Below are positions 51,376 to 52,346 of a stretch of DNA of 59,290 bases, piece after piece. The notes below the pieces were generated by a model. The model ran no database searches. It worked only from the letters and a program-made list of their open reading frames with translations, and was not told where the DNA came from. The DNA comes from a virus: IMG/VR virus record IMGVR_UViG_3300029721_000003. The stretch is one strand, 5' to 3'. Position 1 is the stretch's first letter. Every line of letters starts with the position of its first letter. Both the position numbers and the translations under genes were made by a program.

Positions 51376-51417
51376 AGCAAGGTTGGCGCTTCCGGGGTTC
51401 GATTCCCCGACTTGCTA
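51376..51417 (+). ncRNA. tRNA-like minihelix E1 (acceptor stem plus T-arm, no D or anticodon arms)
   Basis: AGCAAGG-TTGGCGCTTC-CGGGG-TTCGATT-CCCCG-ACTTGCT-A; starts 7 nt after the stop codon; 12-bp hairpin follows at about 51425-51453. Confidence 0.55.
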
Positions 51418-51550
51418 AAATAAAAGAGAGGAAGTACAATATACTTCCTCTCTTACCATTCAAAATAGCACTTGTCCTAAAAATATACAACAACAAATGT
51501 CTTTGTTATAATAGCATATAAAATATAAAAAGTAAAGGAGATTTAAAAAG

Positions 51551-52273
51551 ATGGCAGGATATTATAAAAATCAAATGAGTAACAACGCCGTTTGGGCGTA
51601 TTCGCAAGGTGAAAAACCTATGTATAAGTGGACTAAAACCACTATTTTAGAAGAAATAGATAACATTTTTTGGCACGCTGATAAAAAAACAGAAATAGAT
51701 TTTAAAAAAATGACATTAAAAGAATTGAAAGAGAATTTTCTGGTGTGGTCTTCCTGGCATCATACAGGAAAAATTTACAATGAAACAGATTTTTATTGTA
51801 TAGAAGAAAATGCAGTATTAAACTTTACGGTTAAAGAATTCGATGAAATTATATCTAACAGAAAAAAGAGAACGTATACAAGAAGAACTGCGGCAGAGTT
51901 AGAACAGATTAAAGCAGAAAAAGAAAAAGATATATTGCTTACCGAGAGAAGCAAAGAAATTTATAGAAAATTATATATAATTTATATATATAAATCAGAT
52001 TTAAAAACCTTTAAGGGTTTAATAAACAGGTTTTTGAATGATAAAATAAATATAGAAAAAGATTTTGCCGAAAGTGTAGAAATCGCAAGGCAAAAAGAAG
52101 AGCACAGAATAAAATGCTGGCAAGGAGATGTAAACGACTGGCACAACAGAGAAGGAATTGTTGATTTGTATTATAAAGACATAAGTACCTATGTCTTAAA
52201 AATGCGAGGAGTGGAAAATTATCAAATTGATAAAAAGCTTTTAAAACAAATAAAAAACAAAATAATGAATTAG
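51551..52273 (+). CDS. Hypothetical protein
   Basis: 240-aa ORF, AAGGAG RBS; N-terminus MAGYYKNQMSNNAVWAYSQGEKPMYKWTK. Confidence 0.6.
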   Translation: MAGYYKNQMSNNAVWAYSQGEKPMYKWTKTTILEEIDNIFWHADKKTEIDFKKMTLKELKENFLVWSSWHHTGKIYNETDFYCIEENAVLNFTVKEFDEIISNRKKRTYTRRTAAELEQIKAEKEKDILLTERSKEIYRKLYIIYIYKSDLKTFKGLINRFLNDKINIEKDFAESVEIARQKEEHRIKCWQGDVNDWHNREGIVDLYYKDISTYVLKMRGVENYQIDKKLLKQIKNKIMN

Positions 52274-52280
52274 CTTTTTA

Positions 52281-52306
52281 AGGGCGTACAATCTGCGCCC
52301 TTTTTG
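52281..52306 (+). terminator. Rho-independent terminator
   Basis: AGGGCG-loop-CGCCCT followed by TTTTT. Confidence 0.65.
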
Positions 52307-52346
52307 GCTTGCTCTGGTTTGGCTGGTTCGATTCCAGCCGCAAGCA
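52307..52346 (+). ncRNA. tRNA-like minihelix E2
   Basis: GCTTGCT-CTGGTTTG-GCTGG-TTCGATT-CCAGC-CGCAAGC-A; same architecture as E1 with compensatory stem changes. Confidence 0.55.

Follow-up and report, generated by a model that had tools for sequence, protein, structure and literature searches.

The mascRNA module and the RNA lying upstream of it are separated by the enzymes of tRNA maturation: RNase P makes the 3' end of the upstream RNA, while RNase Z and the CCA-adding enzyme make the small RNA. In phages, the C4 RNA of P1/P7, the CI RNA of P4 and the "species 1/2" RNAs of T4 are matured by the host RNase P, which acts on an acceptor/T-like stack. The elbow is the point from which RNase P, RNase Z and the CCA-adding enzyme all gauge the length of the T-arm/acceptor stack (PMC4919913). 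In plant mitochondria, t-elements carrying the motif GGTTCRANYCC direct cuts by RNase P and RNase Z which form mRNA ends, and the freed element gains a non-templated C or CCA (PMC1920247).

The whole stretch of viral DNA analyzed here (the window, 59,290 nucleotides) is a circular temperate phage genome, and the host of this phage is probably a member of the Lachnospiraceae. It carries two short tRNA-like minihelices, E1 and E2, close to two plus-strand genes. The features to which we refer below are the following:

About 5-30, minus strand: attP-like tRNA piece (GCAGTTCGATTCTCTCATCCCCTGCT) beside the integrase gene
113-1360: tyrosine integrase (general phage-integrase Pfam match)
10920-11801: RecT
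50830..50858, plus strand: predicted sigma-70-like promoter before gene 1, TTGACA-17-TATTAT with TG (11/12 consensus positions)
50956..51369, plus strand: gene 1, 137-aa ORF, swappable cassette upstream of E1
51376..51417, plus strand: minihelix E1 (acceptor-like 5' strand 51376-81; linker 51382-91; T stem 51392-97 / 51405-10, outermost pair C.A; T-loop 51398-404; acceptor-like 3' strand 51411-16; discriminator A 51417)
51424..51454: stable hairpin starting 6 nt past E1 (13 pairs in the RNA fold, 14 in the pattern scan)
51484..51512, plus strand: predicted promoter-like site for gene 2, TATACA-17-TATAAT with TG
51551..52273, plus strand: gene 2, 240-aa ORF
52280..52302, plus strand: intrinsic-terminator-like hairpin with T-run, abutting E2 (conserved right-border block)
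52307..52346, plus strand: minihelix E2 (acceptor-like 5' strand 52307-12; linker 52313-20; T stem 52321-26 / 52334-39; T-loop 52327-33; acceptor-like 3' strand 52340-45; discriminator A 52346)
52349..52370, plus strand: A+T-rich hairpin 2 nt past E2, followed by TTCTTT

The sequence of E1 is AGCAAG-GTTGGCGCTT-CCGGGG-TTCGATT-CCCCGA-CTTGCT-A and that of E2 is GCTTGC-TCTGGTTT-GGCTGG-TTCGATT-CCAGCC-GCAAGC-A; the letters and coordinates agree exactly with those of the first-pass annotation. E1 is separated by 6 nt from the stop codon of gene 1 (last base 51369). Each element was originally described as having a 7-nt acceptor-like stem with a mismatch at position 7:66. The acceptor/T-arm architecture holds good, but the 7-nt parse is not the best one: since position 7:66 is unpaired in 41 of the 47 distinct homologues, a 6-bp acceptor-like stem and a 6-bp T stem forming a 12-bp stack are the better description. 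The extra (sixth) T-stem pair is C-G in nearly all the E1-type relatives and G-C in E2, and is broken in the E1 of the window (C51392.A51410). A GG-containing linker of 8-10 nt connects the two stems. As first reported, neither element encodes a CCA, and in the wider sets of elements it is never encoded (0/100 and 0/43). The discriminator A is likewise present in both E1 and E2, but is not kept among the relatives, the E1-type elements of which have T in 62% of the cases and A in 29%. The fold of E2 has an energy of -18.7 kcal/mol (z = -3.6), and the covariance-model scores of E1 and E2 are 55 and 44 bits, respectively.

The exact 11-mer GGTTCGATTCC occurs twice in the 59 kb, once in each element, the number of chance occurrences estimated from the composition being about 0.01 per window. 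When the window was searched with at most one mismatch, 5 matches were obtained, versus 0.22 expected from shuffles. An initial scanner that accepted any linker and permitted G.U pairs found a mean of 1.45 matches per window in random sequence, as many as in the real window; it was therefore dropped, and strict descriptors and covariance models were used instead. No further minihelix copy was detected in the window with the covariance model. A dispersed repeat of the REP/MITE type was discarded, since the window contains just two copies, which have only the T-loop and two flanking pairs in common. The idea that E1 and E2 might be the attL and attR of an inserted gene-2 cassette, with their shared 11 bp as the core, was also rejected, because the corresponding "attB" (left half of E1 and right half of E2) would not pair; E1 and E2 are each self-complementary.

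The claim that the stems covary was initially based on E1 and E2, which cannot establish it on their own because two different tRNAs could be their sources; the homologues do show covariation. Double changes were found in 10 of the 12 pairs in a model-fitted alignment (A3, 50 distinct sequences) and again in 10 of 12 in a hand alignment (A4, 17 sequences), both of which are biased towards the structure; the raw MAFFT alignment of the E1 and E2 types (A1) had gaps within the acceptor stem and was replaced by the N-padded equal-length alignments A2 and A4. In motif scans blind to the stems, complete stems were present at 47/76 and 41/98 of the non-tRNA sites (42-62%), versus 2/380 and 5/490 (0.5-1%) in the shifted controls. 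The tRNA T-loop consensus GG-TT(C/T)(G/A)A..-CC is invariant or nearly so across the elements. The comparison of the homologues shows that selection on the minihelix acts on pairing, not on sequence. A covariance-model search had been proposed in the first-pass annotation. More than 100 homologues have been obtained; together with the unrelated examples described below and the presence of the 5' strand, they greatly strengthen the view that E1 and E2 are selected acceptor/T-arm minihelices rather than leftover 3' halves of tRNAs.

Another explanation would be that the elements have no present function, being either phage tRNA genes that decayed by losing internal parts or tRNA 3' fragments remaining from integration events. 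Conservation and covariation largely refute this explanation, which we consider highly improbable. The phage clade does contain a variable tRNA cluster, the longer linkers (14-27 nt) present in some variants could be leftovers, and one pair is broken in the E1 of the window. However, the elements do have a 5' acceptor strand, which covaries with the 3' one; an E1-type element lies directly after the stop codon at 50 of the 50 loci retrieved by gene-1 protein homology, despite their unrelated flanks; the same 6+6 architecture occurs in unrelated phages; and no full tRNA was found at the junction position in the 41 relatives checked. A match between E1 and the 3' part of a host tRNA had been named at the outset as a finding that would undermine the minihelix; the 3' half of E1 (a 21-mer) is absent from the tRNA genes of 185,579 species (one genome per species), and four of the five matches to this 21-mer elsewhere in these genomes are the same minihelix in a prophage-like context. 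A tRNA 3' fragment or att remnant was rejected on these grounds, of which the genome search covers the 3' half of E1.

A canonical tRNA gene is ruled out, as the 8-10 nt between the stems include neither a D arm nor an anticodon arm and the tRNA finders gave no match: on the window, ARAGORN detected only a tRNA-Ser and a tRNA-Gln, both located away from E1 and E2, and no tmRNA, and the Rfam tRNA model does not match either element, even at E <= 10. No Rfam family was obtained for E1 or E2 at gathering thresholds (whole window) or at E <= 10 (50700-52700), where Plastid-ycf2 (on the wrong strand) and mascRNA appeared at chance level. The mascRNA-menRNA family (RF01684) was rejected as a homolog of E1 (20.2 bits versus a gathering score of 42.5, E = 0.57), as was tmRNA, the Rfam model of which gave 8.2 bits from the T arm only. 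The G3:U70 pair is absent, by eye, from the main element types, so that charging by AlaRS is not suggested. With the region as the query, blastn identified no relatives among GenBank phages, the sole match being an odd promoter-region similarity to a Staphylococcus Kayvirus, while the E1 region alone matched only the T arm of a Gordonia phage tRNA-Phe. A literature search covering few subscription journals yielded nothing relevant on phage minihelices or tRNA-like intercistronic elements, and an earlier description may exist. The minihelix class is not in Rfam 15 and is unannotated in RefSeq phage genomes, such as that of the crAss-like phage cr53_1.

Segments running from the T arm to the acceptor stem are common attB cores, and this temperate phage has an integrase (113-1360). 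The first-pass annotation had listed integrase target mimics among the possible functions, which would make E1 and E2 secondary att sites or decoys for the integrases of competing elements. We give this idea very little credence: the phage has its own attP-like tRNA piece beside the integrase at the start of the window, and this piece has only the T-loop in common with E1 and E2, its stems being different. In addition, the stems of the elements vary freely, which would be intolerable in an att core, and integration or excision junctions inside E1 or E2 are absent from many prophage copies (such as L087, L089 and L090). The elements are also co-oriented with the genes and lie within transcription units: a strand-blind model search gave 118 of 125 matches on the gene strand, including all the well-scoring matches in variable operons.

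When the window is compared with its relatives, E1 forms a conserved island, with identities of 0.66-0.99 inside it and of about 0.3 in the flanks, and the homology breakpoints (51368-51377 and 51416) coincide with its two ends. At least 15 types of flank occur upstream and at least 15 downstream, in 36 combinations. E1 is kept in L052-L085, where gene 1 is replaced by other ORFs. The segment 51417-52275, which carries gene 2, behaves as an all-or-none block. The hairpin at 51424..51454 is part of the gene-2 cassette and is missing from the relatives without gene 2, in which homology resumes at 52276-52280; because its T-run is on the minus strand, this hairpin is scored as a terminator of that strand. 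The promoter-like site is kept along with gene 2 in L052-L082. In the first-pass annotation, each of the two cargo genes was given a minihelix of its own. Instead, E1 is a fixed joint with genes swapped on both sides, and E2 and the terminator preceding it constitute the conserved right border of the variable region. The position of E2 after the gene-2 terminator was described correctly: the terminator-like hairpin and T-run end 4 nt before E2. The type-C terminal elements of L001 are likewise preceded by a terminator-like hairpin, and the E2-type elements of relatives are followed by the same A+T-rich hairpin. Gene 1 and gene 2 have no match in Pfam, PHROG or PADLOC, and 11 cassette ORFs of relatives have none in Pfam and/or PADLOC, so that the gene content gives no functional hint.

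The comparison with the relatives shows the conserved element to be a joint for gene exchange on either side, and the exchange would most simply proceed by homologous recombination; the phage encodes RecT. Such an arrangement might also mean that the primary role is exerted at the DNA level, the RNA fold being incidental. The element would then be the site of a site-specific recombinase recognizing folded or palindromic DNA, like an integron attC, or a conserved adaptor maintained because it favors shuffling, like the PeSL. The breakpoints and the flank combinations would suit this explanation, and so would the presence of elements of other stem types in series after successive ORFs of the same plus-strand accessory operon, that of a tyrosine integrase and RecT, and the inverted repeats around the 7-bp TTCGATT, which may be taken to resemble the core site of a tyrosine recombinase; the PeSL motifs of T4-type phages provide a precedent for intergenic shuffling motifs (PMC2839356). 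It is nevertheless improbable. The exact tRNA T-loop consensus and the excess of G.U over A.C pairs on the gene strand (30:11 and 98:48) point to plus-strand RNA. No chimeric elements with halves of mixed types were seen, although crossover within the loop would create them, and one element type flanks many cassettes, whereas an integron attC moves with its cassette. Going round the circle, the only integrase found lies at a distance of about 8 kb, next to an attP-like site of its own; single copies of the element lie within conserved replication operons of unrelated phages; and conservation runs on through the hairpin to the ribosome-binding site. An integron attC in the strict sense was rejected, as no intI/attI/Pc platform was found and direct reading of the elements reveals no evident R/L or GTTRRRY boxes.

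In most relatives, E1 is intercistronic, the order being stop codon, minihelix, small hairpin, ribosome-binding site and next ORF. The distance from the stop codon to the minihelix ranges from -1 to 6 nt, the first base of the minihelix being in some relatives the last base of the stop codon; past the minihelix, there are 2-4 nt, a small covarying hairpin, about 20 nt and GGAGG-ATG. This layout leaves no room for a promoter at the junction, so that co-transcription is unavoidable, and E1 must, given this spacing, be transcribed in most relatives. The same layout is found in the unrelated contigs L149 and L204. Taking 158 distinct contexts from the clade of the window, a trailing hairpin starts 1-6 nt past the discriminator in 73%, versus 36% in shuffles.

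We propose, with a probability of about 0.5, that the host RNase P and RNase Z excise these elements in the manner of t-elements and mascRNA, which would cut the operon RNA at the cassette borders and release a small tRNA-like RNA. E1 and E2 would be transcribed RNA modules imitating the upper half of a tRNA, with a 12-bp acceptor/T-stem stack capped by a canonical T-loop and a short GG-containing linker probably replacing the D-loop at the elbow, and they would form part of the mRNA transcribed from a plus-strand operon of accessory genes that is hypervariable. RNase P would cut at the 5' end of the minihelix and RNase Z on the 3' side of the discriminator, and the CCA-adding enzyme would extend the released RNA (about 41 nt). 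The operon transcript would thereby be severed at the cassette borders, as in the case of t-elements, mitochondrial tRNA punctuation and mascRNA. The cut would give the next mRNA a new 5' end, capped by the hairpin located 1-6 nt downstream. In the last position, the preceding mRNA of a read-through transcript would have its 3' end capped by the upstream terminator-like hairpin; the stability role thus attributed to the flanking hairpins leans on the mRNA decay rules of Bacillus subtilis.

Of the three functions suggested in the first-pass annotation, which also included decoys for tRNA-targeting defences, tRNA punctuation or mascRNA-like processing appears to fit the context best, because the element of most relatives is located within a polycistronic junction, with a hairpin behind it. 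Judging from the sequence features, the elements would be suitable substrates of RNase P, RNase Z and the CCA-adding enzyme: the 12-bp stack, the linker that can be deleted (as in L035), the U present at position -1 in 67% of the cases and the lack of an encoded CCA are all consistent with this reading. E1 and E2 have an acceptor-like stem coaxial with a T arm carrying GGTTCRANYCC and, as far as the sequence context goes, they are located inside a longer predicted transcript, next to a coding region. The strong terminator preceding E2 means that only read-through RNA would contain this element. In the relatives with a stop-codon overlap, a cut by RNase P would leave a non-stop mRNA, so that 5' cleavage there would either not be the main event or take place after translation. 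Further observations run counter to processing: in the window, E1 is followed by a separate predicted promoter for gene 2 and one of its T-stem pairs is broken, and the minihelix is missing from some junctions of the operon.

A wider class of elements with the linker AATGGTT occurs in unrelated phages, including a crAss-like genome. Their placement relative to the ORFs is not uniform and the trailing hairpin accompanies just 26% of them, which likewise speaks against a cutting function. In contig L266, at least 6 near-identical minihelices are spaced about 150 nt apart, the A/C-rich spacers containing no ORFs. This array, found in one phage, suggests that the RNA itself rather than the cut can be the point, and it lends some weight to the decoy role listed in the first-pass annotation. 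The released minihelix might then be the product, acting as a mimic of the tRNA elbow and acceptor end which titrates or misdirects a tRNA-binding factor, such as an acceptor-end defence enzyme of the host, an enzyme that processes or modifies tRNAs, or a phage protein. The placement in mRNAs would be a mere means of expression, and since processing would still be needed, this reading, which we regard as a tentative possibility, overlaps with the processing hypothesis. The array looks like RNA dosage; the class is widespread in very different phages; the T-loop and the linker (A/T)ATGGTT are stricter than a bare 12-bp hairpin would require; and the elements lie in ORFan accessory regions, where counter-defence genes presumably tend to be found. 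On the other hand, an RNA with no anticodon arm cannot decoy anticodon nucleases, and in the clade of the window the stems vary by position and the linker can be lost, which would be odd in the ligand of one protein. The tight placement from stop codon to ribosome-binding site and the trailing hairpin are better explained by a role in cis.

Still more tentatively, the data may delineate an unnamed class of "elbow minihelix" RNAs of about 40 nt, in which a D-loop-like AAUGGUU linker joins an acceptor stem to a T arm, in phages of numerous lineages (Lachnospiraceae siphophages, crAss-like phages, jumbo phages). The tRNA-maturation enzymes of the host would cut these mimics of the top half of tRNA out of mRNAs or dedicated arrays, and they would act in trans, for instance by soaking up or misdirecting immunity or toxin enzymes acting on tRNA acceptor ends or, alternatively, by tuning the availability of RNase P, RNase Z or the CCA-adding enzyme. 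In the clade of the window, the module would also make each swappable accessory gene a self-contained expression unit.

Whatever the mechanism, a structured RNA class with strong covariation has been defined. If the processing hypothesis is true, these phages would apply to operon RNAs the tRNA-punctuation logic of mitochondria and MALAT1, using a compact 40-nt signal compatible with any neighboring gene, and this would account for the free exchange of ORFan accessory genes without loss of their expression. The elements would also provide an annotation landmark for cassette borders in the hypervariable regions of phages, and an RNA-processing part driven by host enzymes for engineering in Firmicutes.

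As regards the known systems, integron attC sites are also imperfect palindromes, conserved in structure and variable in sequence, located 3' of successive cassette ORFs, with cassette boundaries at the elements. Unlike them, the type of minihelix is not cassette-specific, at least 15 genes being flanked on each side, and it has a canonical tRNA T-loop and a G.U bias indicating RNA. In the PeSL of T4-type phages (PMC2839356, PMC4122927), conserved intergenic motifs flank variable ORFans and serve as shuffling joints, and a conserved intergenic motif with variable ORFs around it and homology breakpoints at the motif is what we observed here. The PeSL consist, however, of an early promoter and a terminator-like stem-loop, whereas the unit described here consists of a minihelix, a small hairpin and a ribosome-binding site, and in most relatives contains no promoter.

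The C4, CI and species 1/2 RNAs, with which no sequence relation was found, differ from the minihelices in being single antisense or immunity RNAs, or stable RNAs in a tRNA cluster. The tRNA-like domain of tmRNA also has an acceptor stem, a T arm and a stem-less GG-containing D-loop analogue, but the minihelices have no tag reading frame, pseudoknots, intervening body or G3:U70. The mascRNA/MEN-beta modules of MALAT1 and NEAT1 are tRNA-like and lie directly downstream of a functional RNA; they are, however, eukaryotic, nuclear, full small cloverleaves, not homologous to E1. In the tRNA punctuation of animal mitochondria, tRNA-shaped units are placed between ORFs with almost no spacer, and the stop-codon overlap observed in some relatives recalls the incomplete stop codons of mitochondrial mRNAs, although the mitochondrial units are real tRNAs needed in translation, while the minihelices cannot decode and occupy only some of the junctions. 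The t-elements (PMC1920247) have in common with the minihelices a tRNA-like fold, the T arm GGTTCRANYCC and an acceptor-like stem, as well as a position beside protein-coding sequence in long transcripts, at the 5' or 3' ends of mRNAs. They are mostly non-canonical cloverleaves from organelles, few per genome and each unique, whereas the minihelices, the processing of which is only predicted, are elements of about 40 nt without a D stem or anticodon arm, occurring in phage operons and forming families in which the stems covary, the linker resembles a D-loop and a hairpin often follows.

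The first 97 bases of the window are identical to the last 97 (1-97 and 59194-59290), so the window is a complete circular genome assembly. Nearly all its genes lie on the minus strand; gene 1 and gene 2 are exceptions, and had no match in Pfam, PHROGs or PADLOC.

5-30, minus: tRNA 3'-end-like piece, GCAGTTCGATTCTCTCATCCCCTGCT
113-1360, minus: tyrosine integrase
50956-51369, plus: gene 1
51376-51417, plus: E1, tRNA-like minihelix 3' of gene 1
51551-52273, plus: gene 2
52307-52346, plus: E2, tRNA-like minihelix 3' of gene 2 and its terminator
Minus strand: small tRNA cluster
Also encoded: RecT, GH25 lysin, SPP1-type portal, terminase, AntA antirepressor, Cro/CI-type HTH protein

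The make-up of the tRNA cluster varies between phages (Gln, Ser, Tyr, Ile, Asn), and in several close relatives this variable cluster includes a suppressor tRNA (anticodon TTA, reading UAA; minus strand of contigs L004 172-245, L037 736-807, L041 259-332 and L044 26-99). Two tRNA-like stretches with matching acceptor strands, T arms and long internal insertions were seen by eye on the minus strand of the window, at 46779-46915 (CGGATAG...GCAGG-TTCGAGT-CCTGT-CTATCCG) and about 47060-47175 (GCTATG...GGAGG-TGCAAAT-CCTCA-CCATAGC); ARAGORN and Rfam made no call for either. An int-alpA RNA (Rfam RF02996; 46707-46774, minus, 53 bits, exceeding the gathering score) immediately precedes an ORF (45588-46718) matching replication-initiator (O-like) PHROGs, not integrase or AlpA.

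Direct reading gave E1 and E2 exactly the sequences reported in the first-pass annotation, which had described a 7-nt acceptor stem with a mismatch at 7:66. That position is not a pair, being unpaired in 41 of the 47 distinct homologues, and the bases on either side of the five-pair T stem form a pair of their own (C-G in E1-type relatives, G-C in E2). An acceptor-like stem and a T stem, each of 6 bp, are therefore stacked on one another; with the 3' strand running unbroken through both, the 12 bp equal the 7+5 stack of a tRNA in length. The outermost T-stem pair is broken in E1 of the window (C.A). Two invariant G-C pairs close the TTCGATT loop, and the linker, which is 8-10 nt long with TGG inside in E1 and E2, ranges in relatives from 0 nt (contig L035, a plain 12-bp hairpin) to 27 nt. 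CCA, previously noted to be lacking, is encoded in none of the elements, relatives included. E1 and E2 were not called by ARAGORN or the Rfam tRNA model, and no Rfam 15 family exceeded the chance level there.

The acceptor stems of the E1 and E2 types are strand-swapped (AGCAAG/(G)CTTGCT and GCTTGC(T)/GCAAGC; window 51411-51416 and 52307-52312), the 7-mer GCTTGCT being the 3' strand of E1-type elements in relatives and also the 5' strand of E2; alternative long-range pairings across the cassette are possible. At the join between gene 1 and E1, TAATTAATTAG (51367-51378) stops all three frames just before or overlapping the minihelix, and relatives carry the similar TAATAATTAG or TAAAAATTAG. This could serve to terminate swapped-in genes in whichever frame they arrive, or reflect mere A+T richness.

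GGTTCGATTCC has two exact copies in the window, one per element; with one mismatch allowed, shuffles gave a mean of 0.22 matches, as compared with five in the window. Two covariance models found no copy in the window beyond E1 and E2. The covariation previously claimed for these two does not follow from the pair alone, which could be relics of two different tRNAs, so the decisive evidence comes from other loci, where the claim was borne out. At 50 IMG/VR loci picked solely by similarity to the gene-1 protein, an E1-type element directly follows the stop codon in all 50 cases. When 85 loci were searched with the model without regard to strand, 125 copies emerged, 118 of them on the gene strand, as were all the well-scoring matches in the variable operon. 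At least six stem types occur.

Stem types of the minihelices (acceptor-like strands; T stem)
AGCAAG/CTTGCT; CCGGGG
GCTTGC/GCAAGC; GGCTGG
TCGCGT/GCGCGG; TTCCGG
GGCGGC/GTTGCT; CCGGGG, as in the AGCAAG type
AGTGAC/GTCACT; GGGCGG
TCCGTT/GGCGGA; GCAGGG

The homologues contain compensatory changes, the absence of which would have counted against a selected structure: in the model-fitted alignment (50 distinct sequences), double changes occur in 10 of the 12 pairs, and 89.8% of the cells are paired, versus 65.8% in shuffles and 37-57% in slid registers. At the E1 position, pair 1 changes stepwise from A-U through G.U to G-C, and the T stem from CCGGGG/CCCCGG to CCCGGG/CCCGGG, TCCCGG/CCGGGA or GGGCGG/CCGCCC. 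Since this alignment and the hand alignment of 17 sequences are both biased towards structure, two scans with no stem requirement were added, taking as control 3' strands 40-100 nt further on. The T-loop motif with a downstream ATGGAGG gave complete stems at 47 of 76 distinct non-tRNA sites (control, 2/380), and AATGGT followed by the T-loop motif gave them at 41 of 98 such sites among the matches listed (control, 5/490). These comparisons show a fold equivalent to the top half of a tRNA, conserved and covarying on the coding strand within operon transcripts.

Selection is likely to act on the RNA rather than the DNA. The elements are oriented as the genes are, and their loop matches the tRNA T-loop consensus precisely. 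G.U pairs outnumber A.C pairs by 30:11 in the model alignment and by 98:48 with a scanner accepting both, and some types have fixed G.U pairs (two in TCGCGT/GCGCGG; G1.U72 of GGCAAG/CTTGCT). Since the strand bias is only moderate, the RNA level is likely, not proven.

That E1 might be the 3' part of a host tRNA was not borne out: a collection in which 185,579 species are each represented by one genome contains five occurrences of the 21-mer GGTTCGATTCCCCGGCTTGCT, none of them in a tRNA gene. Four of them belong to the same minihelix, set in a prophage-like context (Lachnospiraceae MAGs, Clostridium sp. CAG:510 and a contig binned as Treponema), which suggests the host lineage of the phage; the fifth (L088, a Bacteroidales MAG) is without the 5' strand. 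Nor do the elements appear to mimic an integrase target, as had been proposed: GCAGTTCGATTCTCTCATCCCCTGCT, probably the attP core, adjoins the integrase gene, and its stems differ from those of E1 and E2.

E1 does not close a transcription unit in most relatives. The distance between stop codon and element is -1 to 6 nt, and the element is followed after 2-4 nt by a 4-6-bp hairpin (CCGGG/CTGG, CCCGG/CCGGG, CCTC/GAGG, CCC/GGG or AGCCGAT/ATCGGCT, depending on the locus), about 20 A/T-rich nt, and the GGAGG and start codon of a different ORF. This space being too short for a promoter, the E1-type element of relatives must belong to a polycistronic mRNA. Of 158 distinct contexts, 73% have a hairpin that begins 1-6 nt past the discriminator (shuffles, 36%). 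The last element of an operon (E2-type or type C) has a terminator-like hairpin and T-run directly 5' and another hairpin 3', an arrangement seen in two unrelated sequence families. Downstream of E1 in the window are a 13-bp hairpin and a separate gene-2 promoter, both part of the gene-2 cassette.

Other signals were observed nearby. A perfect sigma-70 consensus promoter (TTGACA-17-TATAAT, 12/12; 52553-52525, minus) faces E2 and gene 2, and the next terminator-like site on that strand is the hairpin 51454-51424 adjoining E1, so an antisense transcript over E2 and all of gene 2 is conceivable. In the gene-1 promoter region (50791-50874), two CTTAAAAGGTGTT repeats flank the -35 box; its roughly 84 nt are 77-80% identical to unannotated intergenic DNA or terminal-repeat regions of the otherwise unrelated Staphylococcus Kayvirus phages (K-like myoviruses). 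The stretch 52371-52750, about 400 nt 3' of E2, is 80-90% identical among relatives, has no convincing ORF and contains the hairpin GTTCTGG-TGGATTC-TCCAGAAC; the stretch could represent a regulatory region or a further non-coding element.

When all loci were compared to the window by blastn, homology was found to end at 51416 or begin at 51368-51377, that is, at the two ends of E1, and the block 51417-52275 was present or absent as a whole. In 93 distinct E1-type contexts, pairwise identity averages about 0.3 in each flank, 0.66-0.99 in the element and about 0.5 in the next 30 nt. When contexts were extracted again with longer flanks (100 distinct ones), at least 15 upstream and at least 15 downstream clusters appeared, in 36 combinations. 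None of the cassette ORFs tested had a family match. These alignments show the element to be a boundary of exchangeable genes; recombination inside the conserved unit would be the simplest mechanism, and the phage encodes RecT.

A 6+6 minihelix in the same setting, after a stop codon and before a hairpin, a ribosome-binding site and an ATG, also occurs in three unrelated contigs: L149, the G+C-rich L204, and L134, which comes from a 301-kb contig and has a less distinct trailing hairpin. All three have (A/T)ATGGTT in the linker, a motif with which CTGGTTT of E2 is compatible and which resembles a tRNA D-loop, but without the stem. Scanning for AATGGT followed within 2-14 nt by the T-loop motif gave at least 120 stretches from very diverse samples; the matches listed include 17 sites within true tRNAs, at least 43 strict minihelices and many more near-strict ones. 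Placement relative to ORFs is heterogeneous in this class, and the trailing hairpin is not general. An unannotated member was found on the gene strand of the crAss-like phage cr53_1 (NC_055889.1 75416-75456, equivalent to L328 2501-2541), in a gap of 310 nt that precedes the DNA primase gene, whose start codon is 16 nt away. On contig L266 (950-1800, minus), at least six nearly identical copies (GCGAGC-CAATGGTTAG-AGCAGG-TTCGATT-CCTGCG-GCTCGC) follow one another at intervals of about 150 nt, separated by A/C-rich (AAC-rich) spacers nearly without G and T runs and without ORFs.

RNase P, RNase Z and the CCA-adding enzyme read the T-arm/acceptor stack and elbow, not the sequence (PMC4919913). The host enzymes might excise the phage minihelices, which would cut the operon RNA at the cassette borders and free a small RNA. 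The hairpins on either side would shield the new ends, in line with the rules of mRNA decay in Bacillus subtilis. The fact that the element overlaps the stop codon in some relatives, that some junctions have no element, that E2 is placed behind a terminator and that the array of L266 is ORF-less weakens the case for pure punctuation, and keeps alive the alternative that the freed minihelix RNA is itself the functional product.

A phage-operon family of minihelices without anticodon arm or D stem is absent from Rfam 15 and from the literature searched, of which coverage was partial, so that an earlier description is possible. Processing modules of a tRNA-like kind are already known, as t-elements, mascRNA and tRNA punctuation. 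The t-elements of plant mitochondria, which have the same T-arm motif as the phage minihelices, direct the RNase P and RNase Z cuts that generate mRNA ends, and on release they carry added C or CCA (PMC1920247).
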